From an uncultured bacterium (GTDB taxonomy: Bacteria; Omnitrophota; Omnitrophia; Omnitrophales; Aquincolibacteriaceae), in contig CAZSFZ010000005.1 of assembly GCA_964606385.1 (NCBI GenBank), positions 40,650 through 104,649 of the forward strand: a stretch of 64,000 bases of DNA. The letters run 5' to 3'. A program made the position numbers and the translations under genes. The notes under the pieces were generated by a model. The model was not told where the DNA came from. It searched no databases and was given only the letters and a program-made list of their open reading frames with translations. The first letter of the stretch is position 1, and the number at the start of each line of letters is the position of its first letter. This document shows positions 9,001-59,013 of the stretch, piece after piece.

Positions 9001-12000
9001 CTGGCTTGAGCGTTTGTATCGCTGGATCGGAACTTTTGATGCCAACAGTATCCTTGCGAGGGCCCGTAACGCCCATATTTTCCGCCAGTCGAGTCGCGTG
9101 TTCAATAACGTGATCATTCGCGGGTTATTCGCGACCGCGATCTGGCTGGTCGTGATCCTTGTCGGGGGAGCTGAGACGTCGGTACCGGGTCTGGGTGGGG
9201 TTGCGCGGCCGTTGCTCGGGGAACTGTTGTATGCCGGCACGATGATCGCGCTATTGCATACCAAGATCACCGGACCGCTGATGAACTATTTAAAGAAGCT
9301 CGGATGGGGTTGGGGCTCCGTTGTCGCGGTCATCATGGGCGCGGCTATTTGGAAATTCCAATTGGACGCTCTCTTCTTTATGGTCGCGTTGTCAGGGCTA
9401 GTCGCATTGGTCGCTATCTTTCTGCCCCACGGGTGGGGTACGAACCTCTATTTCCACATAGGGGAAAGGGAGCTTTCCGGAACTGTAAGACTGAAAGGCG
9501 ACATTAAGCAAACCCGTCTGAAAACGGCGCTTTCCGCTCCTCTCCAGATGGGCGACATCGTTAATCAGGGCGGGGAGGAGACGGTTGCTTCGACCGGTTT
9601 TCTTCTGAATTACCTGGATTATTCGGTTCGTTACATTCGAAAGGCTTTTTCGAGCGTTTTTGCCATGCTTAAGACCAAGCGGGTCACGGCACTTGCACAG
9701 CCCAAGATCCCGAAAGAAACCATTTTTGATGCTATTCGAGCACTTCGCGTGACCGTGACCATTGGACTAGTCCTCCTTTTTGGAATGTGGGGGGCGGGGT
9801 GGATGCCGGATGCCGGGCTCGGAGCTTTACAGGTAGGGTTCTGGGGGCAGTTGGGGATCGCTTTGTTTTATTCCCTCGTTTTCCTCGGAAATTATGTGCA
9901 TATTTTTCAAAAATGGATCGCTACTAAAATTAATTTGGCCAAGGCAAAGGAAAACCTTGAAAAGGAAAAAATCAAAGAAAAAGAAATGGAAGTGATTGCG
10001 GCGAGAAATGCAACCGCTAATGGGACCACCCTTGAAGAGGAAAAGATAAAATTACGGAAAGCAGGGATGGGAGCGAATCTAAGCAGGTCCGCGGATTTTC
10101 AGGCTGAGATTGATGATGCGAAGCATGCTTCACGTCTGAACAAGAAGGATATTTTAAGGACGCTCTTTCATCCGATCGCTTTGCTGGCCGCAGTATACTT
10201 GGCACCGTATTATGGCCCGCTGCTCGATCAGCACCTCTTGGGACGTGCGCTCCCGATCCATCTGGCTTTGATCGGAGGGCCTTTCATCGCCTTCTTTCTC
10301 GGATTCGAATTCCACAAAACGAAGTTGTTGAAATATTTTGCCGAGAAATCCAGGCCTATCGCGACGCTCATCGGATCAATAACATGGGCAGGTACTTTCT
10401 GGTACTACGTGGCCATGGAACGTTTGCCGTGGCTTGGTGCGCTCTACCATAATGCGTTAGGTTGGCTCGGGATTATGTCCACGACGAGTTCCGCCGAAGG
10501 GTTTGTGATCAGCGGAACCGGACTTGGCGCGATGCTGGGTACAAATCCCGTCTTTGTCCTTCTTCATATTTTCGTGTTTGTGGGGGTCTCTCTCCTGGTG
10601 GTTATCGGTGCCGGTCTGGGAATCTACCATTATGTAGAAAGCCTTTTAACGAAAAACATCAAAAACACAGAAATTGGGGTTTTGAAAAAAGCTCTTAAAG
10701 ATTGGAAGAAGTACAATGAAAAAATGGCCGAACGAAAAGCTGCCTCGCAGGCTCAGTCACCTGACGCGCGGTCTGAGATGAGGAATGCGGTGTTGACGGA
10801 TCTCACCAAGATCATGGCGCGGCAGGATGCGCTGCCGGAAAAAGCGGATCTCATCATGGTGTTCGGGAGCGGGGATCTGCGCGTGGCGGCGGAGGTGGCG
10901 GAGATGTACAAGGCCTATGCCGCGAAGGGTGTGTCGCTGAAGGTCCTGGTTGCCGGAAAAGGCGACAAGACCGAGAAGCCTGAAGCCGAACTTTATAAGA
11001 ATGAGATGGTGGCCCGCGGTGTCCCGGCTGAAGCGGTGCTGATTGAACCGACCTCCATGAATATGAAGGAAAACGCTGAGTTTACGCAGAAGGTCCTGGT
11101 TGTTGAAAAGGAAAAATCGGGATTCGATCCTCAGGATATTATTTTTGTTCACGCACCGTTCCATGTTTTAAGAGGCGCGGATGCCGCAGTCAAGGTTTTT
11201 GGAACAAAGATCAAGGCCATCCACGCGGCGTATGTACCGACTGCGACTGAGTTACAGGACGCCAAAGTCATCGCCACGCTTGAAAAACAGGCGCCCAGGG
11301 TTGCCGAGATGCCGTCGATCGCCGAATCCGCAGCCATTAAGGCAAAACTCGACGAATATAAGGCGCTTACGGCACCCTCAGCTGTGCCACCCGCCCGCTC
11401 CGAGTTGCGTACGCCGGAGCAGGAGGCGTTGGTCCAGCCGGTGCGTATGATGACGGATGCGATGCTCGAAATGGTCACGACGGAAACTCTCGCAAATAAA
11501 TTCCGGGAGTTCATGCGCGCGGACATCCTTTTGACGCTCGCTCCCGAAAACAAGATGCTTTTCTACTCCGCGGGACCGGCGACCGGAAAAGGCGCCGTGC
11601 TTGGGGCCTCCTTCCTCGCCGAAGATGGGGAAATCGCGGCTCCGTATCAGGACCTTGTTCAAAAATTTGTCCTGGGCCACCAACGGGATTTCAGGCCCGG
11701 CGATAAGGAGAAAGACGGCCGGCATTATCATTTCCGGTCTCAGAGAGGCTATTGGGCTTCGAAATATGCCGCGCTTAAAGATGCGGGGTATTTCGAGATC
11801 CGAATGATCAACAACCAGGAGCAGATGCTGCCGATCAGGACTTTCACCGACTATGATGTTCCAGTCGAGCACGTTCAGAATGCCGGCCTGATCAATCCGC
11901 AGGATGTTGTGGTCAGCTACGAGATCCCGGAAGGACAGCGCATGAGGACGGAGCTAGTCGTTGAACGTCCTGGAGAAGGGCGTGTGACGCTACGCGATAT

Positions 12001-15000
12001 TATTATTCCCGCGGACAAGCAGGGGACATTCTTGCCGGAAGACGAAGTTGTCAATGTGTCGGGCTCTACGGTCACCGTGAACCGGCGCATCATAGGACTC
12101 AATGAGATGCTTGCCGCCAACCGTTTTACGGTTTTTGAAGGCGGTTACGATTGGTTCCGCTGGATCCAGGAAAATCATCCCGGCGCCTTGACCCTTTTCC
12201 TCTCACCGTTCGAGGAAGCGGATTTTGAAAAACGCTCCAAGAATATGGCGTGGATCCTCAGCGCGAAAGATTCGGCAGGAAGAAAACTGTTCCAGACCCC
12301 TCTCGATGTGTACCTGGCTTTTGAAGCAATTGACATGTTGGTGGAAGGAAAAGATCTAGGAGCTTTTGGGAAGATTGCGCCGAGAGGGGAGCTTGACATC
12401 ACCGGTCAGACCGATCTTCAGGAAACTGTGGTGAGGATTGTCCAACATTTGCGGTCGGGCGCTTACCCGGTCCAAGAGGCCAATGAGAGCGTCATTTTGG
12501 GTTCCCGTTTTATACAGGACCTCAATAATGTCATGGGCAATTTCGGCGCGCCTCAGATCGCTGCAAAGGATTACATGCTGGCTCGTGCGCTTGCCAATGA
12601 ATTGCAGCATCGGACCATGAGCCGCAAGGGAGCTGAACCGCAGCCTTTCTATGTATCCAATAAGCAGTCTAATGCTTATGAAAGGATTTTAGAGGGGATC
12701 TTCCAGATCATGACGCGCCACAACTATGGCGCGGGGAATGTTCTTCCGAACGCGCGGATTGCCGATGAGCAGCAGCGCAAAGAGGCGTTGGCGAAACTTG
12801 GCGACAAATTTGCGCGCCGGCTCTTTGAGCACACCATTGCGGGTATCCGCCGTTCCGAACTCCGCGAAGATGAAACGCCGGTCACCGTTTCGCGGTCTGA
12901 AGTGCGATCTGCGGAGGAGGTCATCCGGCATGTCAAGGAAATGCCCGCTGCAGATTTTGATGCTTTGAAGGTGCCGGAATTGGTTGAGTTGACCCGCGCG
13001 ATGATCCGTACGGGAGCTTTTAAACATTTCCCGGGTCTCGAAGAAAAAATGATGGTTTTTTCGGCCGGACCCGGAACGGGGAAAGGTACGCTTCTCAAAG
13101 TTACTTTTAAAGTTGAAGCGGCGGATCTTGAGAAAGATCCGACTGCCAGGGCGCCTTTCGAAGACTTAGTTGATCGGTTTGTGCTTTACCATTCTCGTGC
13201 TGCGCGCATTGATGTAGAGACTGGTTTGTCGGAAAAAGACGGGGAAGATTATCACTTCCGGAACAACACGGATTATCAGTTCGAAGTTCAACCGGAAAAT
13301 GTGAAGAAAGGTACCTATTTAAGAAGTTTGGCCGCCCAAGGACTGCCGCTGGAGATACAAGAGATTAACCGTCAGGCCCAAGGCATGGCGGTCAATGATT
13401 TTCCGGATGGAGAACCCGGGGTAGTCGTTGCAGATGTCGGCGGAACGGGTCTGTCTCAGTTAAAGACCGGAGATCTCGTGATTGACTTTGACCGAAGGCA
13501 GGGGTTGCTTCGAGTCATGCACCAGGAGAACGAAAGAACGGAAGTCTTGGGGATCTCTATCCCGAGGGACAAAAAAGGTCTTTTTCTCCCTGGAGATCGT
13601 ATCGAGGGTGTGCACGGGACAACGGTGACCGTGAAACGTTCGATCCGTGGCATTACGGGACTTTTTTCAGGTGACCGGCTTGGATTTCTGGAGGGGGGCT
13701 ACGAGTGGTTCCGGTACCTGAAAGATCAGTACCCGAAGATTTGGACATGCTTTCTTGCGCCATTGTCCCCGGCAGAACTTCAACAGCGAATTTATAATGA
13801 AGCCGCTATCGATTCAGCTTTTAAAGATCCCGAGGCGAACGCGTTGGCGCACCATATCATGTTTGCCCGCATGGCTGAATTGAACCGCGAAATAGATCTT
13901 CGCCTTCAGACAGAGATGGAAATGATCCGGGCCGAAGTGGCGAAAGGAGAAAATGGAAAATATGGCTCTATGGATCCTGTGCTTCTTAATAATTCGAAAC
14001 TTATTAAGTCCCCTCGCTTTAAGCGGGAACTCGATTCTCTGCTGCAAAAATACAACATGCCGCCTGTTAGCGTGGAGAGGCTGAAACAGGCCGAGGCGCT
14101 TGCATATGAGATCCAGCGCAGGCTTATCACTCGTGACCCCATACAACCCTTTTTGGATGGGGCGGACAAACCGACGGATCGTCTTAATCGTGTTCTGACG
14201 GGGATCTTCCAAAATTTCACGAGTGAGCAGTATAGCCAGACTGTTGTCAACCGATTCGGATATACAAGGGAGCAAAGAAAGGCAAATCTTGCGCAACTAT
14301 CAGATGAATTCATGGACGGCTATTTGAGGCATGTGCTGGCCGCTGTGCGTCGCTCCGAAGTGCGTGTCCAAACGGTTTCGGACCTTCTGGATGTGGTGGG
14401 TGAGGATGACCAGGCGACGGGGCAGCAGGTGGAGCGGAACGTGGCCCATGAAACGGGTGTCCGTCATCGCGCTGCGGTGCTTTTCGCCTTCAACCGGAAA
14501 GGGGAACTGCTGATCCAGAAGCGGGGTATGGAGAAGGACGTTTTCCCGGATACGTGGACATTCTCGGCAAGCGGTCATGTGGATGCCGGAATGAGCTACG
14601 CCAAAACGATCTTGAAAGAAGCTCCCGAGGAAATGGGTATGTCGCTCGATCCGCAGAGGCTGAATGTCATCGGGGCTACGGGGATGCCGTGGTCGTCCCT
14701 GAAGCAGTACGCTTATACTTTTTCGACTGATGACGTTGCTAAAACCCAGGAGGCGATCGAAAAGGCCCATGAAAGATTAGTCCGTGACGGAGTGCTGCCC
14801 GCCCGGCTTGAATTTGATAATCTTCTTTGGAGAGTTTGGCCGGATCCCGCCAAGGGGAAGGTGACGGTATTCTTGTATAAGTTGAGCTCGAAGCTGGACA
14901 CGGCTTTGGATGCGGCCCGCGACAAAGTAAGTCCCGTGCTGAGAGAAATGGTCGGGGAGTATGAACAGCGGACCATCATGAACCGGGATAACCGGACCCA

Positions 15001-17764
15001 TTACGCGTACCGCTTGAACGAACAGGAAGAGGAATTCCTCGCAAAACGTGCCGAGGAGATCCGCCGGAAGGCCGGGGCCGAGCCGTCCGCCGAGGTGACC
15101 GACCTGAAGTTCGCTTCCCTTGAAGATATCCGGCAGCAGTTCCGTCAGCATCCGACGCTCTTTGTCGAGGACATGCTGATCCTCTTCGACCCGCAGTTGA
15201 ATCGGGACCTGGAGGTCACGGAAGACCTTCTTCGCGAAAGCAAGGTCCAGGAAAAGATTCCGGCTGTGGCGGGTCTGAGCCAGAACGTGCGGGAGGTCAA
15301 GCAGCGGCTCCAGAGGTCGCTTGAGGATCCGAGAGAGGATTTCGACGCGGTCGTGCTGGTCGTGAACCCGGCGTTTACGGGTGTGGTGCGCGAGGCCTTG
15401 GAGGGATTGAAGGGGATCGCGTATAACCCCGCGCTCAGGATCGCGGTCGTGGAAGAAGAGCCCGCGGGGAGCATTACGGATTCATTGGTCGGTGCCGACA
15501 TAGCATTGCGTCAAATGTTCGGAGAAAACTACGCGTCGCAAGTGGCCGATAAGAAGGTCGCGATCATCACGATGTCCGGTTTCGGAGCGCGGATGCCGAC
15601 CGATTTCGGTAAAGGGCTCTTGTCCTTGCCGGGCGGACGGACATACCTGGAACAAATACTGCGACAGCGTTTCTTCTTCCTGGACAAGAACTTCCGCGGG
15701 TTGATGGTCCTTTCGATCGATGGCATCAAGATCCCTCAGTTCATGCCTGAGATGGGCAAGGCCGGTATCCAGGTCATCGGATTGCCGATGGCCCGGACGG
15801 ATGAGAACGTCGGAGAACTGGGGCTTTTCGTCGTGAGCGATCCGTTCCGTCCCGGTGCGCAACCCATCCAATATGCTTTTGAAAAGTTACCGCGCTCTCA
15901 ACGGGATGATTATGCCGCCCGGCAGTTGATCCCGGGCCGGTACGTCAATGTATCGCAGGCGGATTATCCTCTTTCCTGGGAAGCTTATACATGGCTGCTG
16001 GAACAGGTGCGGGCGATGCAGCAAACGCTTGAAACGAAATATCGGGCCGAAGGGAAGAGCTATCGCGACGATAATGTGGCTTACAACTGGGCCGAGCATT
16101 TGTTCGAGCTGGCGTTTTTGCCGGAAGACCTGGTTCCGGACTATCTGGAGCGCTCGGTGGAGCGTTCGGGTCCCATGGACAAGGATGTTTTTGATCAGTT
16201 CCTGCGCATCGCGCGCGAGGCGAGGCAGCGTTTCGGTATGGAATTCGTCAACGTGGGGACCGATTCCGTTTACCATAACACGAACCGTCCCGATCAATAC
16301 CGCGATTTTCTGATCTCGCTCCTGTCGAACGCGGCCGTGCGGGACATGTTCGATCTTGTGGAGCGCCAAGGAAAGCTGGTCGATCTGCAGGCGGAGCAGG
16401 TCAGTCCGTCCGTGTTCAGCTCTCCGATCGAGAGCGGCGTGCTGGTCTCCAAAAGTATCATTGACCTCGGCGTGCAGATGAAAAAAGGAAGCGTTGTTTT
16501 CAATAGCGCGCTGGTGGCGGGTACCAAGATCGACACGCAGGGAGCCGTCATCAACAGCGTGGGGCGCTTCATCGTGCCGCGCGGGGCGATCGTGGACTCC
16601 GTGATCGCTCCTGCGGAAGGTCTGGAAGTGCTGCCGGATAGCTACACGCGGGGGTATTTTGTCAAAAGGCCGGACGGAAAGATCGAGCAGATCCTCGTGT
16701 CGCTCCCGGTGAAGATCCTGGTTACAAGCGGGCAGGCGGCTGATCTAAAGGTGACGGATGTGAAGAGCGCCTTGGATGGTAAACGCTTGAGCCGTTTCGA
16801 GATCTTCCCTCGAGCGGAGCATTTGGCGAATAGGATCCCGTCCTTGGCTGAAGAATCCCCGGAAAAATATTCATTGGATGAGATCCGCAAAGATCTCGAT
16901 CGTGACATGGCTTGGCAGTTCCGTCGGCAGTTGGTCCAGGCCGCCCAAGATCAATCGATGACCGCCTTCCGCCTTGCGGAGAACATGAAAGCTTCTCTTG
17001 CTCAAAAAGGCATGGTCGAAATGAAGCGTTCGGAATTGCGGGAAACGGAAGCGGAAGTCCTCCCGGCAGAAACCGGCGATATTCAGGCAAAAACGGAAGC
17101 TGCCCTCGTGGAATCGCGCGATGATGAGATCGCCGAGGCGATCCAGGCGGCCGTGAAGGAATCTGCGGCGATGCGTCAGGAGATCAGGCTGCAGACCGAA
17201 GTTTTGAGTCAGGATGCGATGCGTGCCGAGGTGCGGATGACCGCGAAAATCATTGAGATGATGAAAGACCTGGGCTTGCAGTCTTACGGCGATCAGACGC
17301 GCTTTGTGGTGCCTTTTGACCAGGATCTCATCCAGAGTCTGATCAAGAATAACCCGAAGGCCAAGATCGTGATCGTGACGAAGTCGTTGGAGGAGAAAGC
17401 GACGGCCGAAGAGCGTACGGCGGGATTCACGGAAGCCACGGGTGTTGTGTTCGATTACGTAGTGAGCAGGAACTTCCAGCTCGATGTCCGTAATATTGCC
17501 GCCGACCAGGCGAAGGAACTGGGTCTCGAGGTCGTCTCCGGTCAACGGAACCGCAGCGTTCTCTTGGTCCGTAAGATCGCGGATGCCGCCATGACGGCCG
17601 AGAAGATCAACCGGGCTTATGCTCTGGTAGGCCAGATGTTCGGTATTGTCGCGATCGTGGGCTTCCAACCCGATGTGTCCGTCGATTTCGCGACCGATCA
17701 CTCGATCGCCGACATCCTGCAATCCGAGATCAGCGCCCAGCAGGCGATCGGCAAGTCCGCATAA
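20..17764 (+). CDS. Giant multidomain membrane-associated protein (5914 aa); the 5' end may extend beyond the window, since the frame is open from nt 2. Modules: N-terminal charged/coiled-coil region; 3 TM helices (~6098-6430); HEAT/PBS-lyase-like repeats (~6790-7500); 12+ TM helix block (~8740-10640); DUF218/YdcF-like (~10850-11230); two tandem ~500-aa modules (~11396-14365); Nudix-like (~14430-14890); sugar-nucleotidyltransferase-like plus left-handed beta-helix (~15550-16620)
   Basis: A single stop-free frame of 17.7 kb in the standard code, which cannot arise by chance at this GC content. Motifs read directly from the sequence: DPRAIPAL/DSRAIPTL HEAT-like repeats; LIMVFGSGDLRV...IFVHAPFHVLRG (DUF218-like); GHVDAGMSYAKTILKEAPEEMGM (degenerate Nudix box); ITMSGFGARMPTDFGKGLLSLPGG (NTP-transferase-like G-x-G-x-R) followed by hexapeptide-repeat segment VVFNSALVAGTKIDTQGAVINSVGRFIVPRGAIVDSV; many hydrophobic 20-23 aa segments. 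RSE[LV]R motifs at 7556, 11396, 12851, 12893, 14351 and 17027. Confidence 0.85.
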   Translation: MNIEEFRQALRTPGGIAGLKARLEIAGMSDSKTDALRKELEALRQMRRGIHSKQFTSVWAKLGYDTGAFRANVGMNMRLFGGDYRARLKVNEYEQEKKADQIEEREQALLFEMERNLTSLISTAEQKDLARQRLQVLMNGWEENRRSTALGLIGGDAGFDDERKLVEAYHALNAVDQAHMWNWTDFNLFLVRGNINPSILGVAAQAAAGTAEITPVPAQSKAKVEVLTKEDIGLDAFQSDRKVIGETDKRAEFQPNARDLMTSLGLGVSLSAAEVQKSEALFKEAEEGLKAARSGRDAAARRVQEQQKKVDSLARELESLKVSEKAKAEKKDGFLNWLLGLFGVGEQFSGTLKSALIAKDLEKAEQELVRLKADLAKAEQDRQEWEVKAREADGQRRASLSAQGLEELIAKILGANVDSHNLASTLGKEGLQLRYLNALIQAAKFDGAERILEKLLNGQKLQAFWEQDVGASFLADPAATDALQEIRLGAVKSEDPSKDVSFLRYVGFLDFVVARHVDWALLSPEFRAKAKINTPADANRWFLELFGTLVQARDLLQQHYRNLPDSAFPAGTDKVAMAKLKLGIPLDINAPAEFGMIWGLAYDAKLRGIDLGRGEAIFNEEITEEKDFDGDKKPDVTVTRKYEEILRESFPDYSLNKRWRAVQDRRINSDERRYGMEEAWEFRAIVHGKFAPDGSVTLNQIDQDQTVEQARTLAVQAALRQSGVRKEHWGKVAYAVGMMKTLMDTNIPAPMEGFEALARLRQIAADVAAVQSKKSGGAVLTPVEEKILADAAEKEKVAMRILVQDKFVQSSGAFAARESLTLLLKNVGTLSPSDKTAYYDLIETSMVDAKDGIELGRAMGLLNTLLHGSGFESSEERAAWIKMDLSKRIEKMKQLLGTAFNLNKVISYPIASDETGELLGRLLAIAGDLDKGTDAWTEFFDKDGNLAGTEEKNQVKIDRARRLSTKLFHTILTPEGQAAILKYAADVDEMSIHESKNKRGKEGDVAAIARDLALNDRLQTLDDVKEELSIRTQIFQEAPKLGEDFRLHATELNFYSDMFREFRDLYTQMTVPQLFDLIKAAMSSRGELLQTTIPSLEQRVKPELLTTDDYKAFLEKARYLSGQTMDFSAAFQLVTDFFNDQKRRVPEKRAAFEDAASWIAEQEKIKTLLQAGYMLTHFDEAGDPLPMEGSDISSWIDNIRRGFFGEDQIAAVMDNVQVLKYDGDIEILNNVAKGKFLRAYAGRVLLAGAMSEADVSKVLDAIFSKIDSRGRYDFKAIEAEIQARIQNPEARQKVLEAMNKFPVFKYWEKMGLARDAVNLKRSPEWMRLWFDFVAVLEEASLVEANKMVDTAQLSFAVRRSLKGTVTVDSMKSFLMGPEDPWYKKPFSWAQNKRLFRQMRFVDEYHDFAFMDMGPAINDYQRLVGTWNMVFKQLPGTAEVDFGTEIWNAMDKDPVFSQWKISDREALQRQAIAHFQMIDASFADKYYAALVGKRTQLTEAENQEIWGKVRAAQEAVRAQMKQTVIDSLISRAKGEPDRAAFRKESLTLSAELLGLRGAAKDAWKSRRDFYDENRAFPEGKTEKEIASGLQTMYTELLAKIPAGDRGFYPKELDKYTLEALVKEMIVWGYTMNDVFYRFVQLNYEVEGAYRKALKIPDSTRLTRVQSGEVSAYTEELFKSVGFLISGAYPGEAEALKRVGRPLDGIITTELARFQDRLVLRDQLKDLFTKKFGNTTQIHESKTEVDRKAYLWATKLQERVKTVKDVEVWVTQAQALMTTAPQLSVSEALALMDTWIDLGIADAPSTEKVWDDAQMKSEWDTYRTGLVAYAQGPGYEKAWRNFWLYDPATQVMRDFNSPEFQALVNARIAQRKISPVQLKALIDQVMKTDALIRKIMRQQDEKSISDKTRLIEGIRSISIVDLLFYYDAISNPGEKIDFIDIAAETSGRRDEMLPQMQAWQKMVQDAISSAKKFELEEGMLPEKFDLTEFTTPKAPAPVEGKFQQWRNEFDWKFKQMLRGTLDLEKHGWVNIAIISAIAGALLFIVSLLRDIARKTVLKKIGHGKIYDNDLKSPQSQQGFDWGYRFYAAFIFAATTGIMGVFASVKNLDVFWSPAFVFTIAANFYLIYHIVNIFFQYFVGNLGARPVYPMKPSGGSQPLLSGESDELQAKVLVRLLQKLAAASPDARPLIGDQVEASITRVLKQRTGEYPATADIVPSIVGQLAAAPDTEVAVRDWLDSLPAARSETRAESQPRSQMRLTDVQEKQFQKAMDGAQDKWWYNFFPDGGEKRRIDAMQALAEFKDSRAIPTLIKIWESSLSGGNADSFLERAIRNSAQRALKTFESHEFVPELIDALNNATDSGMRYVFRIFSTLKDPRTFPVLLNALKDARLSYRLSAVRALTEMSDAQFVPELMTVLNDDSPEVCVLAAGAILKFNDPQTFPKLVDALVRVLERLPRGGEHTTAGDDAMKLLGELKDPRAIPALSQFERRHGHAQWTSLRVWSDALESIKKGTQERSELRSEEDEAREDAELEFREAAARGKWKTMPPMPPVGQIQALQELLRPDRDDLGEMQAWIGHLVRVLEETPPSLKLFLFARDWDSPTSKEEGMTAKEFMLAAMRNAKTVDGRRVDLLKEFGDRVVVFTRSGSFEKPYDYQAIMRWLKTGKHTLEGRISEDIADPAKRAAFEHKWGADKEWDKWEGHNARKALEPVPSNEPELDEQGLPRKDEKGNIVYKPTLDENGNVVYPLERIPLINGVLDNRTGEEISLDADPKKWPPLVQSLRNTELGKSSVEHLLVFDAEIGMTGEDVFWTFAKMNDPRNKRHGMFEPRQIVRNEAETVQTFNEATAGGSLWFTHGALSRFFNRIRAFGKFGIKVNKYYDDIMEPTVDDPYGPYIGASVRASDMILHPTAFKLTKFFIFIVVPVAVTLCVNAVIGLGVFLAAFSLLPRFFAKWPHVKGSGTSRALLSHDEWEAVFTPVALMNDIVMEDDAKPKPINWLERLYRWIGTFDANSILARARNAHIFRQSSRVFNNVIIRGLFATAIWLVVILVGGAETSVPGLGGVARPLLGELLYAGTMIALLHTKITGPLMNYLKKLGWGWGSVVAVIMGAAIWKFQLDALFFMVALSGLVALVAIFLPHGWGTNLYFHIGERELSGTVRLKGDIKQTRLKTALSAPLQMGDIVNQGGEETVASTGFLLNYLDYSVRYIRKAFSSVFAMLKTKRVTALAQPKIPKETIFDAIRALRVTVTIGLVLLFGMWGAGWMPDAGLGALQVGFWGQLGIALFYSLVFLGNYVHIFQKWIATKINLAKAKENLEKEKIKEKEMEVIAARNATANGTTLEEEKIKLRKAGMGANLSRSADFQAEIDDAKHASRLNKKDILRTLFHPIALLAAVYLAPYYGPLLDQHLLGRALPIHLALIGGPFIAFFLGFEFHKTKLLKYFAEKSRPIATLIGSITWAGTFWYYVAMERLPWLGALYHNALGWLGIMSTTSSAEGFVISGTGLGAMLGTNPVFVLLHIFVFVGVSLLVVIGAGLGIYHYVESLLTKNIKNTEIGVLKKALKDWKKYNEKMAERKAASQAQSPDARSEMRNAVLTDLTKIMARQDALPEKADLIMVFGSGDLRVAAEVAEMYKAYAAKGVSLKVLVAGKGDKTEKPEAELYKNEMVARGVPAEAVLIEPTSMNMKENAEFTQKVLVVEKEKSGFDPQDIIFVHAPFHVLRGADAAVKVFGTKIKAIHAAYVPTATELQDAKVIATLEKQAPRVAEMPSIAESAAIKAKLDEYKALTAPSAVPPARSELRTPEQEALVQPVRMMTDAMLEMVTTETLANKFREFMRADILLTLAPENKMLFYSAGPATGKGAVLGASFLAEDGEIAAPYQDLVQKFVLGHQRDFRPGDKEKDGRHYHFRSQRGYWASKYAALKDAGYFEIRMINNQEQMLPIRTFTDYDVPVEHVQNAGLINPQDVVVSYEIPEGQRMRTELVVERPGEGRVTLRDIIIPADKQGTFLPEDEVVNVSGSTVTVNRRIIGLNEMLAANRFTVFEGGYDWFRWIQENHPGALTLFLSPFEEADFEKRSKNMAWILSAKDSAGRKLFQTPLDVYLAFEAIDMLVEGKDLGAFGKIAPRGELDITGQTDLQETVVRIVQHLRSGAYPVQEANESVILGSRFIQDLNNVMGNFGAPQIAAKDYMLARALANELQHRTMSRKGAEPQPFYVSNKQSNAYERILEGIFQIMTRHNYGAGNVLPNARIADEQQRKEALAKLGDKFARRLFEHTIAGIRRSELREDETPVTVSRSEVRSAEEVIRHVKEMPAADFDALKVPELVELTRAMIRTGAFKHFPGLEEKMMVFSAGPGTGKGTLLKVTFKVEAADLEKDPTARAPFEDLVDRFVLYHSRAARIDVETGLSEKDGEDYHFRNNTDYQFEVQPENVKKGTYLRSLAAQGLPLEIQEINRQAQGMAVNDFPDGEPGVVVADVGGTGLSQLKTGDLVIDFDRRQGLLRVMHQENERTEVLGISIPRDKKGLFLPGDRIEGVHGTTVTVKRSIRGITGLFSGDRLGFLEGGYEWFRYLKDQYPKIWTCFLAPLSPAELQQRIYNEAAIDSAFKDPEANALAHHIMFARMAELNREIDLRLQTEMEMIRAEVAKGENGKYGSMDPVLLNNSKLIKSPRFKRELDSLLQKYNMPPVSVERLKQAEALAYEIQRRLITRDPIQPFLDGADKPTDRLNRVLTGIFQNFTSEQYSQTVVNRFGYTREQRKANLAQLSDEFMDGYLRHVLAAVRRSEVRVQTVSDLLDVVGEDDQATGQQVERNVAHETGVRHRAAVLFAFNRKGELLIQKRGMEKDVFPDTWTFSASGHVDAGMSYAKTILKEAPEEMGMSLDPQRLNVIGATGMPWSSLKQYAYTFSTDDVAKTQEAIEKAHERLVRDGVLPARLEFDNLLWRVWPDPAKGKVTVFLYKLSSKLDTALDAARDKVSPVLREMVGEYEQRTIMNRDNRTHYAYRLNEQEEEFLAKRAEEIRRKAGAEPSAEVTDLKFASLEDIRQQFRQHPTLFVEDMLILFDPQLNRDLEVTEDLLRESKVQEKIPAVAGLSQNVREVKQRLQRSLEDPREDFDAVVLVVNPAFTGVVREALEGLKGIAYNPALRIAVVEEEPAGSITDSLVGADIALRQMFGENYASQVADKKVAIITMSGFGARMPTDFGKGLLSLPGGRTYLEQILRQRFFFLDKNFRGLMVLSIDGIKIPQFMPEMGKAGIQVIGLPMARTDENVGELGLFVVSDPFRPGAQPIQYAFEKLPRSQRDDYAARQLIPGRYVNVSQADYPLSWEAYTWLLEQVRAMQQTLETKYRAEGKSYRDDNVAYNWAEHLFELAFLPEDLVPDYLERSVERSGPMDKDVFDQFLRIAREARQRFGMEFVNVGTDSVYHNTNRPDQYRDFLISLLSNAAVRDMFDLVERQGKLVDLQAEQVSPSVFSSPIESGVLVSKSIIDLGVQMKKGSVVFNSALVAGTKIDTQGAVINSVGRFIVPRGAIVDSVIAPAEGLEVLPDSYTRGYFVKRPDGKIEQILVSLPVKILVTSGQAADLKVTDVKSALDGKRLSRFEIFPRAEHLANRIPSLAEESPEKYSLDEIRKDLDRDMAWQFRRQLVQAAQDQSMTAFRLAENMKASLAQKGMVEMKRSELRETEAEVLPAETGDIQAKTEAALVESRDDEIAEAIQAAVKESAAMRQEIRLQTEVLSQDAMRAEVRMTAKIIEMMKDLGLQSYGDQTRFVVPFDQDLIQSLIKNNPKAKIVIVTKSLEEKATAEERTAGFTEATGVVFDYVVSRNFQLDVRNIAADQAKELGLEVVSGQRNRSVLLVRKIADAAMTAEKINRAYALVGQMFGIVAIVGFQPDVSVDFATDHSIADILQSEISAQQAIGKSA
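11396..14365 (+). repeat. Intragenic tandem duplication of a ~1.47-kb (~490 aa) module inside giant ORF 1 (copy A ~11396-12865, copy B ~12893-14365); copies are diverged at the DNA level but clearly homologous at the protein level
   Basis: Both copies share the ordered motifs M(L/V)F(Y/F)SAGPxTGKG, DLV(Q/D)(K/R)FVL(G/Y)H, (K/D)GxxYHFR, GxTVTV(N/K)R, (F/L)EGGY(D/E)WFR(W/Y), QPF...GIFQ, and both end in (I/V)RRSE(L/V)R. Confidence 0.7.
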
Positions 17765-17787
17765 CACAAGCCTCACTATGGCTTGTC

Positions 17788-17857
17788 GTGGAACGGGGAA
17801 CGCAGAACGGTAAACGATGCTTTAGACGTTCCGCGTTTCCCGTTTCCCGTTACCCGG
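17788..17857. repeat. Inverted-repeat element made of tandem GGNAACG-type heptamers (4 units per arm, 10-nt loop), 24 nt after the stop of giant ORF 1; likely intrinsic terminator or REP-like element
   Basis: Forward arm GTGGAACG GGGAACG CAGAACG GTAAACG, loop ATGCTTTAGA, reverse arm CGTTCCG CGTTTCC CGTTTCC CGTTACC CGG; the arms are reverse complements unit by unit. Confidence 0.6.
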
Positions 17858-17862
17858 CCTTT

Positions 17863-17871
17863 TGCTATACT
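17863..17871 (+). promoter_or_regulatory. Extended -10 element TGcTATACT ending 7 nt before the nadE ATG; implies a leaderless or near-leaderless nadE transcript
   Basis: TGCTATACT at 17863-17871; nadE ATG at 17879 with no Shine-Dalgarno sequence in between. The same 9-mer recurs at 20094-20102 and 24615-24623 upstream of other genes. Confidence 0.4.
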
Positions 17872-17878
17872 TCCACTC

Positions 17879-19549
17879 ATGAAAACTCCCTTGAAGATCG
17901 CCATCGCGCAAATGAATCCGACCGTGGGGGACTATGAGTCCAATACGGCGCGGATCCTGCGGTGGATCGATCTTGCCGAGCGGCAGGGCGCGGATCTGAT
18001 CGTTTTTCCCGAAGCCGCGCTTTGCGGTTATCCCGTCTGGGACCTGGCCAATAAAAAGCAATTCCTCGCGGAAGGGATGAAGAGTCTTGGCCGTATCGCG
18101 GCTTCAACCAAGCGAAAAAAGATCGCGGCTGTTGTGGGCTTTATTGCTCCGTGCAAACTGCACGGCAAACGGACCACGGGGAACTCGCATAACGCCTTGG
18201 CCTGGGTCGAAAAGGGGAAGGTCCGGACGGTCTATCACAAACAGCTTCTGCCCACCTATGATGTCTTCCTCGAGGAGATCTTCTTCCGCCCCGGAACTGA
18301 TACCAAAGTCATTCCGTTCAAGGGCCATAAGATAGGCCTTACGGTCTGCGAGGATATCTGGGACGAGAAGTATGAGGTGAAGCCGCTCGCTGCTCTTGCG
18401 AAAAAGAAAGTAGATCTTGTGATCAATATTTCCGCCTCGCCCTATTACCGCGGTGTCGCCGCTTCTCGTGAGAAACTTTTGAAAGGCCATGTGCAGCGTT
18501 ACGGTTTCCCGATCCTTTATGTGAATCAGGTAGGGGGGCAGGATGATCTTCTCTTCGACGGGCAGAGCATGTTTGTGGGTGAAAACGGCAAGATCCTTTT
18601 CAGGGCTCCCGCGTTCAAAGAAGATCTCTTCTTTTTCGATCCGACCCAGATCCGACCCCGGAGGTCGGATGGGCCGTTTCGACCTCCGGGGTCGGATCCG
18701 GTTAGCGAGCTGTATCAAGGGCTTGTCATGGGAGTGCAGGATTATTTTCGCAAGAACGGTTTCAAGAAGGCCGTGATAGGGTTAAGCGGCGGCATTGATT
18801 CGGCGCTTGTGGCCGCGATCGCGGTGGATGCCTTGGGAAAAGAGGCTGTCAAGGGCGTGACGATGCCCGGGCCGTTCTCATCGGAGGGGAGCTGGAAGGA
18901 TTCGGCGGAGCTTGCGAAAGCGCTTGGGATCGAGTTTGAGGTGTGGCCGATTAAGGAAATGTACCGGACGTTTCTTAAACAACCGCCTCGGGGAACGGGG
19001 AACGGGGAACGCAAACTTACATTAGCAATGGAAAATCTCCAGGCACGTCTCCGCGGGATGGAGCTTATGTATATTTCCAATGATGAAAACCGGCTTGTTC
19101 TGACGACCGGGAATAAGTCCGAGCTCGCGATGGGATACTGCACGCTGTACGGCGATATGGCGGGCGGCCTGGCCGTGATCGGGGATGTGTATAAGACCGA
19201 GGTCTACCGCTTGGCGCGATACAGGAATTCCATTCGCAAAGCAATCCCGGAATCCACGCTGACCAAGGCGCCTTCCGCAGAACTCCGGCCGAACCAAAAG
19301 GACCAGGATTCGCTGCCCTCGTATGAGGTGCTTGATGAGATCCTCGGGCTTTATATCGAAAAGAACCTGAGCCGCGACGAGATTGTCCGTAAGGTTCGCA
19401 AGAGGATCCCTGAGGCGGTCGTGGCCGATGTGGTTCGCAAGGTCGATCATAATGAGTACAAACGCCGCCAGACGCCGCCCATCCTGCGTGTGACCGAAAA
19501 GGCGTGGTTTGGCCGCCGCATGCCGATCACGAACCGATTTGCCGGATAG
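17879..19549 (+). CDS. nadE: Glutamine-dependent NAD+ synthetase (N-terminal nitrilase/CN-hydrolase domain plus C-terminal NAD synthetase domain)
   Basis: KIAIAQMNPTVGDYESN...LIVFPEAALCGYP (CN-hydrolase) and GLSGGIDSALVAAIA (SGGxDS PP-loop) ...GNKSELAMGYCTLYGD. The start is taken at the internal ATG 17879 (MKTPLKIAIAQ) rather than the ORF-track start 17783, which overlaps the upstream repeat element. Confidence 0.9.
   Translation: MKTPLKIAIAQMNPTVGDYESNTARILRWIDLAERQGADLIVFPEAALCGYPVWDLANKKQFLAEGMKSLGRIAASTKRKKIAAVVGFIAPCKLHGKRTTGNSHNALAWVEKGKVRTVYHKQLLPTYDVFLEEIFFRPGTDTKVIPFKGHKIGLTVCEDIWDEKYEVKPLAALAKKKVDLVINISASPYYRGVAASREKLLKGHVQRYGFPILYVNQVGGQDDLLFDGQSMFVGENGKILFRAPAFKEDLFFFDPTQIRPRRSDGPFRPPGSDPVSELYQGLVMGVQDYFRKNGFKKAVIGLSGGIDSALVAAIAVDALGKEAVKGVTMPGPFSSEGSWKDSAELAKALGIEFEVWPIKEMYRTFLKQPPRGTGNGERKLTLAMENLQARLRGMELMYISNDENRLVLTTGNKSELAMGYCTLYGDMAGGLAVIGDVYKTEVYRLARYRNSIRKAIPESTLTKAPSAELRPNQKDQDSLPSYEVLDEILGLYIEKNLSRDEIVRKVRKRIPEAVVADVVRKVDHNEYKRRQTPPILRVTEKAWFGRRMPITNRFAG
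18649..18698. repeat. Perfect 19-bp inverted repeat (GATCCGACCCCGGAGGTCG / CGACCTCCGGGGTCGGATC) with a 12-nt loop, lying in-frame inside the nadE inter-domain linker; preceded by a direct repeat of GATCCGACCC
   Basis: Arms 18649-18667 and 18680-18698 are exact reverse complements. The element translates as RPRRSDGPFRPPGSDP without disrupting the frame. Confidence 0.8.
18989..19011 (+). repeat. Three tandem CGGGGAACG heptamer units inside the nadE coding sequence (encoding GTGNGE); the same unit family as the intergenic inverted-repeat elements
   Basis: cggggaacggggaacggggaacg, read directly from the sequence. Confidence 0.6.
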
Positions 19550-19583: not shown

Positions 19584-20063
19584 ATGAACAGCCTACAAAA
19601 AACACCGGTCAAAACAAAGGCCGGGATTTTTATGCTTGAGTTCAGCCCGAAGGGGCTTTATGCGGTCCGTTTTCCGTCTAAGATGCCTGATTCCACCCCA
19701 CCTGCGAGGTGGGGTGGGTTCGGGAAGAAGCGATTGAAGCTCGATTTGACGGGCTACACACCATTCCAACGCAGGGTGTACGCGGCGCTTCGAAAAGTCC
19801 CTGCGGGAAAGACCATTACCTATGGGGAACTCGCCAAGCGGGCGGGATATCCGGGGGCAGCCCGCGCGGTCGGGAGCGCGATGCGCAAGAACCGGCTTCC
19901 GATCGTGATCCCATGTCACCGGGTCATTCAAGGAGACGGAAGCTTGGGAGCCTATTCGGCGGGAGTGAAGTGGAAAAGGTTTTTGCTCGAGTGTGAGAAA
20001 GTATTGGCGTGTCAGAGTGTCAACGTATCAAAGTGTTATAACGATAGGGCCATGACACGCTGA
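19584..20063 (+). CDS. ogt: Methylated-DNA--protein-cysteine S-methyltransferase (Ogt/MGMT)
   Basis: The active-site motif PCHRVI and a helix-turn-helix DNA-binding region (TYGELAKRAGYPGAARAVGSAMRKN) are present. Start is uncertain: ATG 19584 or ATG 19632. The ORF-track start 19509 would overlap nadE. Confidence 0.8.
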   Translation: MNSLQKTPVKTKAGIFMLEFSPKGLYAVRFPSKMPDSTPPARWGGFGKKRLKLDLTGYTPFQRRVYAALRKVPAGKTITYGELAKRAGYPGAARAVGSAMRKNRLPIVIPCHRVIQGDGSLGAYSAGVKWKRFLLECEKVLACQSVNVSKCYNDRAMTR

Positions 20064-20093
20064 TACTTTGATACCCTGAAACTTTATTTTTTG

Positions 20094-20152: not shown

Positions 20153-20485
20153 TTGCAGCCTAAAAAGATCGCGGAGTTGTTGCGGACGCTTGCGGAGGAC
20201 AAAAAGGCCGAAGATCCGGTCCTTCTTGACATTTCCAAGCATTCCAGCCTGGCCCATTATTTCTTTGTCTGTCATGGGAATAGCGACCGTCATGTGAAGA
20301 CGATCGCCATGCACCTGGCGGATGAAATGAAACATCGCAAGATGCCGGCTTACCATATCGAAGGCCTGGTCGAGGGGAAATGGGTCCTCCTCGATTTCGG
20401 GCCGGTCATCGCCCATATTTTTTACCACGAAACCCGGCAATTCTATGGTCTCGAACGCCTGTGGGGCGAAGCGAAGAAGGTCTAA
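20153..20485 (+). CDS. rsfS: Ribosomal silencing factor RsfS (iojap family), with a TTG start
   Basis: Iojap-like sequence ...DPVLLDISKHSSLAHYFFVCHGNSDRHVKTIA...WVLLDFGPVIAHIF; RBS AGGGAGG 11 nt upstream of TTG. Confidence 0.8.
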   Translation: MQPKKIAELLRTLAEDKKAEDPVLLDISKHSSLAHYFFVCHGNSDRHVKTIAMHLADEMKHRKMPAYHIEGLVEGKWVLLDFGPVIAHIFYHETRQFYGLERLWGEAKKV

Positions 20486-20488
20486 AAG

Positions 20489-20554
20489 CCGGGTAACGGG
20501 TAACGGGTAACGCCGAACGCTTTCGTTGATCGTTTCCCGTTCACCGTTCCCCGC
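20489..20554. repeat. Heptamer inverted-repeat element (GGGTAACG x3 + CCGAACG / CGTTTCC CGTTCAC CGTTCCC), 4 nt after the rsfS stop; likely terminator or REP-like
   Basis: The arms are reverse complements built of GGNAACG units with an ~11-nt loop; same family as 17788-17857 and 46888-46970. Confidence 0.6.
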
Positions 20555-20566
20555 TGAAACCATCCT

Positions 20567-22232: not shown

Positions 22233-22360
22233 AAACCCGAAATCCTAAACTCGAAACCCGAAACAAATCCAAATGCTTCAATAATAAAAACGTTTTTTTT
22301 GAGTTTTGAACTTTGCTTGTTTGAGTTTGTTTCGAATTTCGGATTTAGAGTTTCGGGTTT
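22233..22360. repeat. AT-rich ~130-bp imperfect inverted repeat (35-nt arms with ~6 mismatches, reiterated CCCGAAA units) and a nested AAAAACGTTTTTTTT palindrome; bidirectional terminator or MITE-like element between argS and miaA
   Basis: Left arm AAACCCGAAATCCTAAACTCGAAACCCGAAACAAA (22233-22267); right arm TTTGTTTCGAATTTCGGATTTAGAGTTTCGGGTTT (22326-22360); the centre is AT-rich with a T8 run. Confidence 0.55.
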
Positions 22361-28658: not shown

Positions 28659-28691
28659 GGCAGTAGCAGGATAAACCGGAATCATTCAAAA

Positions 28692-28727
28692 GCCCATGAT
28701 CGCAATAGCGGTCATGGGCTTTTTTTT
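28692..28727 (+). terminator. Rho-independent terminator (12-bp stem GCCCATGATCGC/GCGGTCATGGGC, AATA loop, T8 tail)
   Basis: Hairpin plus U-run read directly. The ORF-track ORF starting at 28696 merely translates this hairpin. Confidence 0.8.
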
Positions 28728-31339: not shown

Positions 31340-31636
31340 CCACTTTTCGCTGAGTCTAGCCTCCTAGGTTGATCCCTCGATTTAAACCCTATTGGGAATT
31401 TTTGACTTTTTGATATAGCAATAAATATCATTCATAGCTAATTATAGCAATTTATAACCAATATTAATCAAATATATCCTTTTAAACCCTTGTAATAACT
31501 ATATTCAAATGGCATATTTTTAGTAGAGATAAAACACGGAGCAAATTGAATGGAATATCGCATTAACAAATAAGTTAGCTCGCGTCAGAAATTGAACTAA
31601 ACGCTAACTTCGGGAATGGAATAAGGGACATAAAAC
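31340..31636 (+). promoter_or_regulatory. Strongly AT-rich ~300-bp island upstream of giant ORF 2; probable promoter/regulatory region containing direct repeats (ATAGCAATAAATA / ATAGCAATTTATA / ATAGCTAATTATA)
   Basis: Base composition contrasts sharply with the ~58% GC flanks. Repeated ATAGC(A/T)AT motifs lie ~190-230 nt upstream of the ATG at 31637. Confidence 0.5.
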
Positions 31637-46887: not shown

Positions 46888-46970
46888 CGTAGAACGCGGC
46901 CGGGAAACGTGGAACGGTTAACGTTAAAGCAGTCGTGCGTTCAGCGTTTCCCGTTCACCGTTCCCCGCGG
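46888..46970. repeat. Heptamer inverted-repeat element between the convergent giant ORF 2 and the minus-strand transporter; likely bidirectional terminator
   Basis: CGTAGAACG..GGGAAACG TGGAACG GTTAACG / CGTTCAG CGTTTCC CGTTCAC CGTTCCC; it starts 6 nt after the giant ORF 2 stop and ends 4 nt before the stop of the minus-strand gene. Confidence 0.6.
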
Positions 46971-48670: not shown

Positions 48671-48748
48671 GATGTGGAACGGGTAACTTAGATCGTGACA
48701 GTTGGTTTTCTCTTACCCTATGCTGCATTCCACGTTTGGCGTTTCCCG
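48671..48748. repeat. Weaker copy of the heptamer inverted-repeat family (GTGGAACG GGTAAC ... CACGTTTGG CGTTTCCCG) in the divergent intergenic region
   Basis: GTGGAACGGGTAA at 48674-48686 pairs with TTACCC/TTCCAC around 48714-48732, with a wider loop than the other copies. Confidence 0.35.
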
Positions 48749-58290: not shown

Positions 58291-59013
58291 ATGAAGAACG
58301 GTGCTGAAGCTCTGACCGATATCTGCGTCGCGGGCATCACGCCCTTTACGACGATAGATTTCCCCGGCCGTCTGGCCGGGGTTTTCTATCTCCAGGGGTG
58401 TCCGTGGCGGTGCCGTTACTGCTATAACGCCGAGTTCTGGCCATTACCTCCCGAAGGACAGCGCGTTCCCGCCGAGAAGATCCTCGAGTTCCTGGATTCC
58501 CGTAAAAATCATCTTGATGGCATTGTCTTTTCAGGTGGAGATCCTACGGTCCATGAGCGTCTTCCTGTCTGGATGAAAACCGTGAAAGACATGGGGTTTG
58601 AAATCGGTCTTCACACCGGCGGGATGTTTCCGGACCGTCTTGTCAACATCCTGCCGCTTTGCGATTGGGTCGGCCTCGATATCAAAGCTCCTTTCGATCG
58701 CTATGAAAAAGTGACGCAAATCGCTGGAAGCGGGGAGAAGGCCCATCGGAGCGCGGAACTTGTCCTTGCGAGCGGCGTATCCTATGAATTCCGCACGACT
58801 TTTCATCCCGCGTTGCTTTCTGAAGAAGATGTGCTCGCGATGGCCCAAAAGCTTGCCGGAATGGGATGTAAGCGTTATGCTCTTCAAATGTTCCGACCCG
58901 ATCATTGTGCTGATAAAGAGCTTCGCGAAAGTTCTGTCCCTGCGGCCGGCATTTCCGCGGCGCTTCGCCAGAACCTCAAAACTTATTTCTCGGAATTTCT
59001 TATTAGGGAATAA
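58291..59013 (+). CDS. nrdG: Anaerobic ribonucleotide reductase activating protein (radical SAM)
   Basis: GCPWRCRYCYN (CxxxCxxC radical-SAM cluster), directly downstream of nrdD. Confidence 0.88.
   Translation: MKNGAEALTDICVAGITPFTTIDFPGRLAGVFYLQGCPWRCRYCYNAEFWPLPPEGQRVPAEKILEFLDSRKNHLDGIVFSGGDPTVHERLPVWMKTVKDMGFEIGLHTGGMFPDRLVNILPLCDWVGLDIKAPFDRYEKVTQIAGSGEKAHRSAELVLASGVSYEFRTTFHPALLSEEDVLAMAQKLAGMGCKRYALQMFRPDHCADKELRESSVPAAGISAALRQNLKTYFSEFLIRE

Follow-up and report, generated by a model that had tools for sequence, protein, structure and literature searches.

What are the long periodic hairpins that stand directly behind stop codons in the genome of an uncultured Omnitrophota bacterium, and do they end transcription there? 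We address this question on a stretch of 64,000 nt (assembly GCA_964606385.1, contig CAZSFZ010000005.1, positions 40,650 to 104,649 of the forward strand; hereafter, the window), in which a first reading of the letters and of the open reading frames (ORFs) had noticed a family of inverted repeats made of GGNAACG-like heptamers. That original prediction preferred to see factor-independent terminators in them and named a family like the repetitive extragenic palindromes (REPs) as the alternative. We find that the building rule of the class is constant (a tandem 7-nt unit, mirrored, behind a stop codon), and that the unit itself is arbitrary and replaceable. The elements have a period of 7, lie close to gene tails, avoid divergent spacers and share units, sometimes whole arms, within a genome; in addition, their units turn over at fixed sites, their arms are mirrored, and in-frame arrays occur in an unconstrained protein loop.

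Three clear copies with 3-4 GGNAACG units, a loop and the inverse units are confirmed in the window (all hairpin elements are given here without a strand). The first, E1 (17788-17857), consists of four units, a 10-nt loop and four inverse units. Its 5' arm (17788-17816) reads GT GGAACG GGGAACG CAGAACG GTAAACG, its loop (17817-17826) is ATGCTTTAGA, and its 3' arm (17827-17857) reads CGTTCCG CGTTTCC CGTTTCC CGTTACC CGG. E1 lies 24 nt past the TAA of giant ORF 1 (17762-17764) and 22 nt short of the nadE ATG (17879), and a small 7-bp hairpin read from the sequence, ACAAGCC / GGCTTGT (17766-17786), stands between that stop codon and E1. The second, E2 (20489-20554; 20486-20556 in a slightly wider delimitation), has four units per arm; the 5' arm is CGGGTAACG GGTAACG GGTAACG CCGAACG, that is, a perfect GGTAACG x3 plus CCGAACG, with CTTT next, and the 3' arm is CGTTGAT CGTTTCC CGTTCAC CGTTCCC, followed by CG. 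E2 begins 4 nt past the rsfS stop codon (20483-20485) and ends 13 nt short of the argS ATG (20567). The third, E3 (46888-46970), fills the 91-nt gap between two convergent genes, giant ORF 2 (stop codon 46880-46882) and the minus-strand CitMHS_2 transporter gene (46974-48218; stop codon 46974-46976). The 3' arm of E3 (46945-46967) is identical over 23 nt to the E2 arm at 20531-20553, 26 kb away, and the 5' arms and loops of the two elements differ.

These three GGNAACG hairpins are far above chance. The motif AACGN3AACGN3AACG, with at most one mismatch, matches the window 17 times versus 0.25 expected, and AACGN3AACG matches 20 times versus 2.3 expected, nearly all of these within the E elements and the nadE array described below. 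Tandem Repeats Finder (TRF) assigns period 7 to 17829-56, 20490-512, 20531-53, 46945-67, 22233-64 and 22330-55, and the lag-7 self-match of the arms is 0.8-1.0. E1-E3 fold as long interrupted stems on both strands (-34 to -45 kcal/mol, z -2.7 to -4.6), with -37.7 kcal/mol (z -3.4) on the plus strand and -34.5 kcal/mol (z -3.6) on the minus strand for E1, z -4.5 and -3.9 on the two strands for E2, and z -2.7 (plus) and -4.6 (minus) for E3. The original prediction also listed a weaker copy, E4 (48671-48748; GGAACGGGTAAC ... CGTTTGGCGTTTCCCG), and let every copy start 4-24 nt past a stop codon. This spacing is correct for E1-E3 and wrong for E4, which lies in a divergent spacer. Because E4 keeps only unit remnants, folds no better than shuffles (z -0.6 and +0.2) and sits between head-to-head genes, we regard it as either a decayed member of the family or a chance occurrence.

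Two periodic hairpins of the window had been missed, both in the 5-kb gene row that also holds E1 and E2. E5 (22233-22360) represents a second family; it spans 128 nt with period 7 and is built of (A)AACCCG/CGAAACC heptamers in 41-nt arms that are 80% complementary and enclose an AT-rich 46-nt loop. It starts 4 nt past the argS stop codon (22228), ends 31 nt short of the miaA ATG (22392) and folds with z -6.1 and -7.5 on the two strands. E6 (20009-20082; GTGTCAGA GTGTCAAC GTATCAAA ...) is a period-8 hairpin that spans the ogt stop codon (20063) upstream of rsfS. Thus, in the gene row giant ORF 1 - nadE - ogt - rsfS - argS - miaA, whose names like all gene identities of the window are Pfam matches, a periodic hairpin stands at four junctions, and the nadE-ogt junction, an overlap, has none; the end of giant ORF 2 likewise carries a periodic hairpin, E3. 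Rfam gives no match to the window at its gathering thresholds, and at E<=1 it gives solely generic long-hairpin matches (plant miRNA precursors) on E5, far below threshold. Searching the fetched loci for the CGAAACC element yielded no other copy than the one in L001, whose sequence is that of the window itself.

The period of 7 is not peculiar to the window. We analyzed 61 metagenome loci around argS relatives (the argS set, 461 kb), which were chosen by argS homology alone and are unbiased for the motif; all fetched loci together amount to 1.33 Mb and were analyzed with our own scripts. In the argS set, TRF reports 89 tandem arrays with at least 2.8 copies; period 7 accounts for 52 of them (28 inside inverted repeats), period 6 for 19 (mostly coding) and period 8 for six. 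The share of period-7 arrays lying inside inverted repeats is 54% (set A) to 73% (set B). Inverted repeats whose arms reach 20 nt or more number 46; their arms repeat with a period of 7 in 12 cases and of 8 in two, periods of 3-6 and 9 do not occur, and shuffled arms yield no periodic case. Over all fetched loci, 7 is the dominant repeat period. The two arms also mirror each other in detail: over all hairpins, 37% of the positions with a minor unit variant show the same variant in both arms, versus about 3% for independent arrays. A statistic on purine-rich 5' arms was dropped, since a palindrome is identical on both strands and the search pattern biases the measure.

We next consider where the hairpins lie relative to genes. 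Genes were called by self-trained codon log-odds with longest-ORF starts, so that some hairpins are wrongly scored as lying inside genes (E1 is one example) and the distance from a hairpin to the following start codon is a minimum estimate. Of 226 heptamer hairpins, 134 lie between co-directional genes, 27 between convergent genes and 12 in divergent spacers; another 39 are scored inside a gene, many of them as artefacts of the longest-ORF starts. Divergent spacers make up 20% of the intergenic length and hold only 7% (12/173) of the heptamer hairpins. The median distance from stop codon to hairpin is 6 nt, and 102 of the 134 co-directional hairpins lie nearer the tail of the preceding gene than the start of the following one. 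Arms are mostly 3-5 units long (median 26 nt) around a median loop of 16 nt. The median element measures 72 nt and the median spacer 111 nt; the hairpin essentially is the spacer.

Comparison of orthologous sites shows that position and architecture persist while the unit is exchanged. Of 14 relatives whose ArgRS shows an identity of 80% or more, 13 have a heptamer hairpin in the rsfS-argS spacer, the site of E2, and these hairpins fall into five unit families: GGNAACG in the window and in loci L126, L127 and L133; GNGTACG in L122, L123 and L158; CAACGCN in L124 and L125; GGGACTC in L128, L131 and L141; and GGATGNN in L129 and L134. In L130, the spacer has only a direct GGTCTNN x3. Within a genome, the unit upstream of nadE is the same as the rsfS-argS unit in the window, L122, L125 and L133. 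At the ogt-rsfS site, the period-8 TGTCA-type hairpin of the window has an orthologous hairpin in L134 (3464-3538), and other units are found in L122 (GGATGG), L123 (AGCTATA) and L125 (CCAAGNA). The argS-miaA hairpins were gained independently in the window (CGAAACC) and in L125/L145 (TAGGGNA). Even in the AACG group the arrays differ: L126 has 3+3 units versus 4+4 in the window, and the perfect GGTAACG x3 of the E2 5' arm is absent from the L127 orthologue, which has a different unit mix.

The arrays also reach into coding sequence. At 18989-19011 of the plus strand, nadE contains a tandem array CGGGGAA x3.3 with a 100% match, in frame, which encodes part of the loop PPRGTGNGERKL; the array that the original prediction placed here is real, and its remark that the unit can spread is supported. 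Among orthologues the flanks of this NadE loop are highly conserved and the loop itself is wholly different. Seven of ten orthologues have a loop that is itself a lag-7 array (11 or more matches out of 14, versus about 0 for shuffles). The arrays use four different units and run in both orientations: GGGGAAC in the window, L127 and L138, the same unit inverted (CGTTCCN) in L133, GACNGCN in L129, GACNAGN in L125 and CGANTCC in L126. L122 and L123 have other palindromic repeats at this place. Since three 7-nt units make 21 nt, the reading frame is kept. In addition, L125, whose hairpins use CAACGCN, has a perfect CGGGGAA x4 (28 nt) at 1409-1436, near the 5' part of the nadE region, which indicates that the GGGGAAC unit circulates there too.

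Other inverted repeats were seen at or near these sites. A near-perfect palindrome (18646-18701; 22-nt arms, 95% complementary, 12-nt loop) lies within the nadE coding sequence of the window, in the linker between the CN-hydrolase and NAD-synthase domains, whose length and sequence vary greatly from one orthologue to the next. An inverted-repeat element of about 69 nt, TGTCATTCCCGC...CATTCGGGGATGACA, occurs twice in L122 (2741-2809 and 6875-6943) and looks like a miniature inverted-repeat transposable element (MITE); in L123 (about 2250-2400), a related copy seems to have been inserted, in frame, into the hypervariable loop of NadE. In the rsfS-argS hairpin of L141 (about 3880-4000, GGGACTC), the 3' arm is interrupted by a nested hairpin, GTCCGCCA...TGGCGGA, which suggests that one palindrome was inserted into another. 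Just downstream of argS, a hairpin CCCTCTCCCTTCAGGGAGAGGG is common to L122, L128, L131, L142 and L177, and it is followed by a small DUF559-like gene in L128, L131, L142 and L177 and by a second small hairpin and a GIY-YIG-like gene in L122. The GIY-YIG insert of L122 is also present in L178, there without the CCCTCTCCC hairpin, and these argS-miaA inserts look like small mobile inserts. Finally, perfect palindromes with 20-22-nt arms, ACCCTGTACACACCCGGTGTG ... CACACCCGGTGTGTACAGGGT, adjoin heptamer hairpins in several relatives (L131 4480-4531, L142 2363-2414, L145 1756-1807, L158 6469-6518 and L177 1833-1884).

We then scanned 185,579 species genomes with the pattern AACGN3AACGN3AACG + N4-34 + CGTTN3CGTTN3CGTT, for which we estimate about 0.07 chance matches over 596 Gb. 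AACG-core heptamer hairpins are found at at least 120 genome loci in about 10 phyla. The matches listed include Acidobacteriota, Chloroflexota, Verrucomicrobiota (with Akkermansia muciniphila), Gemmatimonadota, Bacteroidota, Planctomycetota, Omnitrophota, Nitrospirota, some Proteobacteria and a few others. Among these same matches the units are lineage-specific, with GAACGAT in Acidobacteriota, GAAACGT in Chloroflexota and CAACGTC and similar units in Verrucomicrobiota; AACGCTN is found in a Bacteroidota metagenome-assembled genome (MAG), and the GGGGAACG/GGGTAACG units of the window recur in the Omnitrophota MAG loci L012, L085 and L109. The majority unit is common to 12 of 32 locus pairs from the same genome versus 5% of between-genome pairs, again among the matches listed. 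The 8-kb loci around the matches also contain 57 other heptamer hairpins, which share the genomic context but whose units (GCTATCC, GATGAGC, GGTAAGC, GACTTCA, GGATTCG and others) are unrelated to the search pattern. The viral collection gives only two matches to the pattern.

Our tentative reading is that the elements are REP-like dispersed palindromes made of heptamer simple sequence repeats (SSRs), remodelled by slippage and copying, which act as intercistronic or 3'-untranslated-region stem-loops and not as canonical terminators; we hold it with somewhat less than even confidence. The REP-like family that the original prediction offered second is supported, and closer to the evidence than its terminators, given the identical 23-nt arm of E2 and E3, the recurrence of a unit at several loci per genome and the in-frame array in nadE. 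On this account, slipped-strand mispairing would remodel the arrays in 7-nt steps, either intrastrand template switching (quasi-palindrome correction) or selection for pairing would keep the arms mirror-like, and short-patch copying would spread units between loci. The transcribed hairpin, with 20-30 bp interrupted every 7 bp, may then persist as a tolerated or useful stem-loop. Like the REPs and bacterial interspersed mosaic elements (BIMEs) of E. coli, for which this has been shown, it could impede 3' exonucleases and separate one cistron from the next.

Several points weigh against this account. The role as stabilizer or boundary is an analogy with REP/BIME and not a result. Sense-strand mismatches in the co-directional cases show a weak excess of G:U over A:C (115 versus 85, p=0.04; 73:71 in non-periodic inverted repeats), and this asymmetry is marginal. 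Slippage alone explains neither why distant loci share a unit nor why 7 is preferred over 6 or 8; the Pfam matches of 19 ordinary window proteins, outside the two giant ORFs and the last two genes (59226-63997), contain no transposase or other candidate gene. Among the four AACG orthologues of the rsfS-argS spacer there are no compensatory pair changes. Their AACG/CGTT cores do not vary, and mismatched or unpaired bases are frequent at the positions that do, which could mean instead that it is the core sequence that counts.

The same lack of covariation speaks for another view, in which a replication or repair bias lets arrays accumulate in unconstrained sequence as a neutral or selfish by-product with no function for the cell. 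It would also fit the arrays in the unconstrained NadE loop, the arbitrary and numerous units per genome, the relatives without any argS-miaA spacer, and the fact that no function has been found for the heptamer repeats of Xanthomonas or Nostoc. However, a by-product would hardly be expected to keep a hairpin in one and the same spacer of nearly all close relatives (13 of 14) although its sequence has turned over completely, to place more than half of the period-7 arrays in inverted repeats with mirrored arms, to avoid divergent spacers, or to retain inserts of 70-130 nt in tightly packed gene rows. We regard this view as doubtful, though less improbable than the readings that follow.

That the hairpins are terminators without a U-tract, whose long stem alone stops RNA polymerase at gene ends, we consider unlikely. 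Stable hairpins a few nucleotides behind stop codons, enriched in spacers that contain a gene tail and depleted in divergent ones, are what such terminators would look like, and E3 and 26 other cases lie between convergent genes. However, a T-run of at least 4 within 12 nt past the hairpin is present in only 7% of 110 co-directional cases, and this rate is equal on the antisense side and in non-periodic inverted repeats; among E1-E3 only E1 has one, a TTTT at 17860-17863, 3 nt beyond its stem. In place of a short GC-rich stem of 5-14 bp with a 3-8-nt loop, we find stems of 20-40 bp and loops of 10-46 nt, with the median arm and loop given above, all unlike intrinsic terminators. The next start codon follows within 40 nt in 66 of the 110 cases, and in the window it follows after 13 nt (argS), 22 nt (nadE) and 31 nt (miaA), which leaves no room for a promoter; an efficient stop would silence the downstream housekeeping gene. 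Moreover, argS and miaA overlap (ATGTGA) in many relatives, so that the junction that holds E5 is otherwise operon-internal.

The supply of ordinary terminators bears on the same question. The original prediction supposed that GC-rich DNA lacks the usual U-tract terminators. The premise does not hold, the window having a GC content of 49-56% (about 53%), and the scarcity does: terminator-like sites equal the shuffle expectation (20 versus 20.0 and 21 versus 21.3), which speaks for the terminator reading. However, the scan for such sites picks up none of the hairpin elements, and the genome has a canonical bidirectional terminator at 28688-28723 (A-tract, stem, T-tract). Together with a canonical-looking one at 58353-58390 (a GC stem, then TTTTCTAT at 58362-58381), this indicates that the organism is not devoid of that type. 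A role as factor-independent terminators is thus unsupported by the sequence, and efficient intrinsic termination is unlikely to be the general role; in annotation, these elements should not default to intrinsic-terminator scoring.

It is similarly improbable, in our estimate, that an active genome-specific mechanism writes and spreads the heptamer palindromes instead of passive slippage. Such a mechanism would generate tandem 7-nt arrays, mirror them into hairpins and copy them between loci in at least 10 phyla, and candidates may be a nicking or restriction enzyme that forms a "repeat generator" with a polymerase, a hairpin-specific transposase, or short-patch ectopic template switching. If true, it would explain the unit "dialects" of genomes and lineages and the different units in orthologous spacers, as well as identical arms 26 kb apart and in-frame arrays of a genome's own unit that overwrite the NadE loop. 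Some units contain what we take to be type IIS or nickase sites (GGATG, GAGTC/GACTC and CGTACG).

We give a still lower chance to mobile REP/RAYT-like elements (RAYT, REP-associated tyrosine transposase) or MITE-like elements, whose whole hairpins a transposase would recognize and move. The arm shared by E2 and E3, the genome-specific families, the de novo gain of argS-miaA hairpins with different units in two lineages, and the extragenic, tail-proximal positions reminiscent of REPs would all fit transposition. However, the loops and 5' arms of E1-E3 differ completely, many different units coexist per genome, and the element borders, as read from the sequence, have neither target-site duplications nor a conserved GTAG-like foot tetranucleotide; no Y1 or other transposase is present in the scanned window proteins, although 64 kb is a small sample.

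Least probable among these readings are protein-binding arrays with a 7-nt spacing, in which a heptamer binder resembling a cold-shock domain would occupy single-stranded RNA or DNA, or another protein would occupy duplex DNA, and the hairpin would be secondary: the invariant AACG/CGTT cores with variable, often unpaired flanking positions, the identical 3' and different 5' arms of E2 and E3, the lineage-specific units among the matches listed, and the report, as cited in PMC4679880, that CspB binds with one protein per heptamer would agree with it, but several unrelated units coexist in a genome and are swapped at an orthologous site among close relatives, which would need many fast-changing binders, and no protein stands out as a candidate. 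Reading of the sequence led us to reject four further ideas: integron attC sites (their cores R''/R', RYYYAAC/GTTRRRY, cannot be matched here, and the neighbouring genes have housekeeping roles), CRISPR, a parS-like site for the Chloroflexota GTGAAAC unit (wrong half-site orientation) and the G-quadruplex as a general explanation (most arms are without four G3 tracts).

The hairpins stand in a window with the following further features. Giant ORF 1 (20-17764) and giant ORF 2 (31637-46882) comprise at least 5914 codons and 5081 codons, respectively. The 396-nt spacer upstream of giant ORF 2 contains a period-10 tandem repeat, TATAGCAATT x4.4 (31414-31456), which overlaps a promoter-like site at 31402-31431. 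The gene set of the window is of an anaerobe type, with PFOR, NrdD and an ADP-forming acyl-CoA synthetase. Giant ORFs amid such genes, together with the unit type that recurs in the Omnitrophota MAG loci, by themselves suggest a member of the Omnitrophota.

Heptamer repeats have been known since 1990, as the short tandemly repeated repetitive sequences (STRRs), and are over-represented in many bacterial genomes. Our results show that post-stop heptamer hairpins are no curiosity of Xanthomonas or cyanobacteria: they occur in about 10 phyla with a strong preference for 7 nt, they retain their architecture and position when the unit sequence is swapped, and protein loops can take up such arrays in frame. 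Material for the questions of mRNA stability, termination and the 7-nt step is provided by orthologous sites whose units differ and by culturable carriers such as Akkermansia muciniphila (L071, L082), Pinibacter aurantiacus (L078) and Salinivenus lutea (L042).

How do these elements compare with known systems? With intrinsic terminators they share a hairpin downstream of a stop codon, and they differ in having no U-tract, far longer stems and loops, a position mostly within gene rows and a next start only 13-31 nt away in the window. REPs of E. coli are extragenic imperfect palindromes at gene 3' ends and in operons, and their transcribed stem-loops protect the upstream mRNA; REPs have a conserved GTAG-type foot, a link to RAYT transposases and copies that are similar over the whole length, and they are not built of heptamers. 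The elements described here resemble REP/BIME of Enterobacteria and Pseudomonas as extragenic 3'-end imperfect palindromes in genome-specific sequence families. In contrast to these, they are heptamer-built, and E1-E3 differ in flanks and loops and have only the unit type and one arm in common. The 19 scanned proteins contain no RAYT/Y1 transposase. As for MITEs, no target-site duplication, their hallmark, is visible at the element borders, and in place of unique terminal inverted repeats the arms consist of tandem arrays.

The STRRs of cyanobacteria, heptanucleotides for which Rehm et al. cite Mazel and colleagues (1990), belong here too. They are likewise dispersed noncoding tandem heptanucleotides that are lineage-specific and come in several unit families per genome; they are described mainly as direct arrays, and we know of no description of a systematic post-stop hairpin architecture for them. 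The TAACTGA repeats of Beggiatoaceae, Cyanobacteria and Bacteroidetes (MacGregor 2015, PMC4679880) form direct arrays immediately before start codons; a single one is inverted. They are similar to our elements as intergenic heptamer arrays with a patchy cross-phylum distribution, and different in being direct and placed before starts, whereas ours are inverted pairs just past stops. A Nostoc preprint deals with upstream heptamers. In a literature search that was incomplete, we found this hairpin class described only in Rehm et al. 2015, MacGregor 2015 and the Nostoc preprint, and no paper on a cross-phylum hairpin form, unit replacement at orthologous sites or in-frame arrays.

Closest to our elements is the system of Rehm et al. 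2015 (PLoS One, PMC4692102), who describe intergenic heptamer SSRs, GGGAATC in Xanthomonas and GGGGAYT in Nostoc, and who cite Mrazek 2007 for heptameric SSRs being over-represented and Mazel 1990 for the heptanucleotides of Calothrix. The Xanthomonas arrays mostly have about four units and form 70-75 convergent (inverted) pairs per genome that are capable of stem-loops; 89-93% of them are intergenic, at a mean of 28 nt past the upstream ORF and rarely between divergent genes (PMC4692102). They are transcribed, vary in length and sequence between Xcc and Xac, and have a role that, according to the authors, "still remains to be elucidated" (PMC4692102). Our elements show the same traits: tandem 7-nt arrays of units with a G-run and an A-rich part (GGGAAAC/GGGGAAC in the window), convergent array pairs, tail-proximal intergenic placement behind ORFs, rarity in divergent spacers, and variation between close relatives at the same gene pair. 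They belong to another phylum and use another unit, and most of their arms are without four G3 tracts for a G-quadruplex. Three of their traits have no counterpart in the Xanthomonas description: the exchange of one unit for another at orthologous sites, several unit families side by side, and in-frame arrays within a protein loop.

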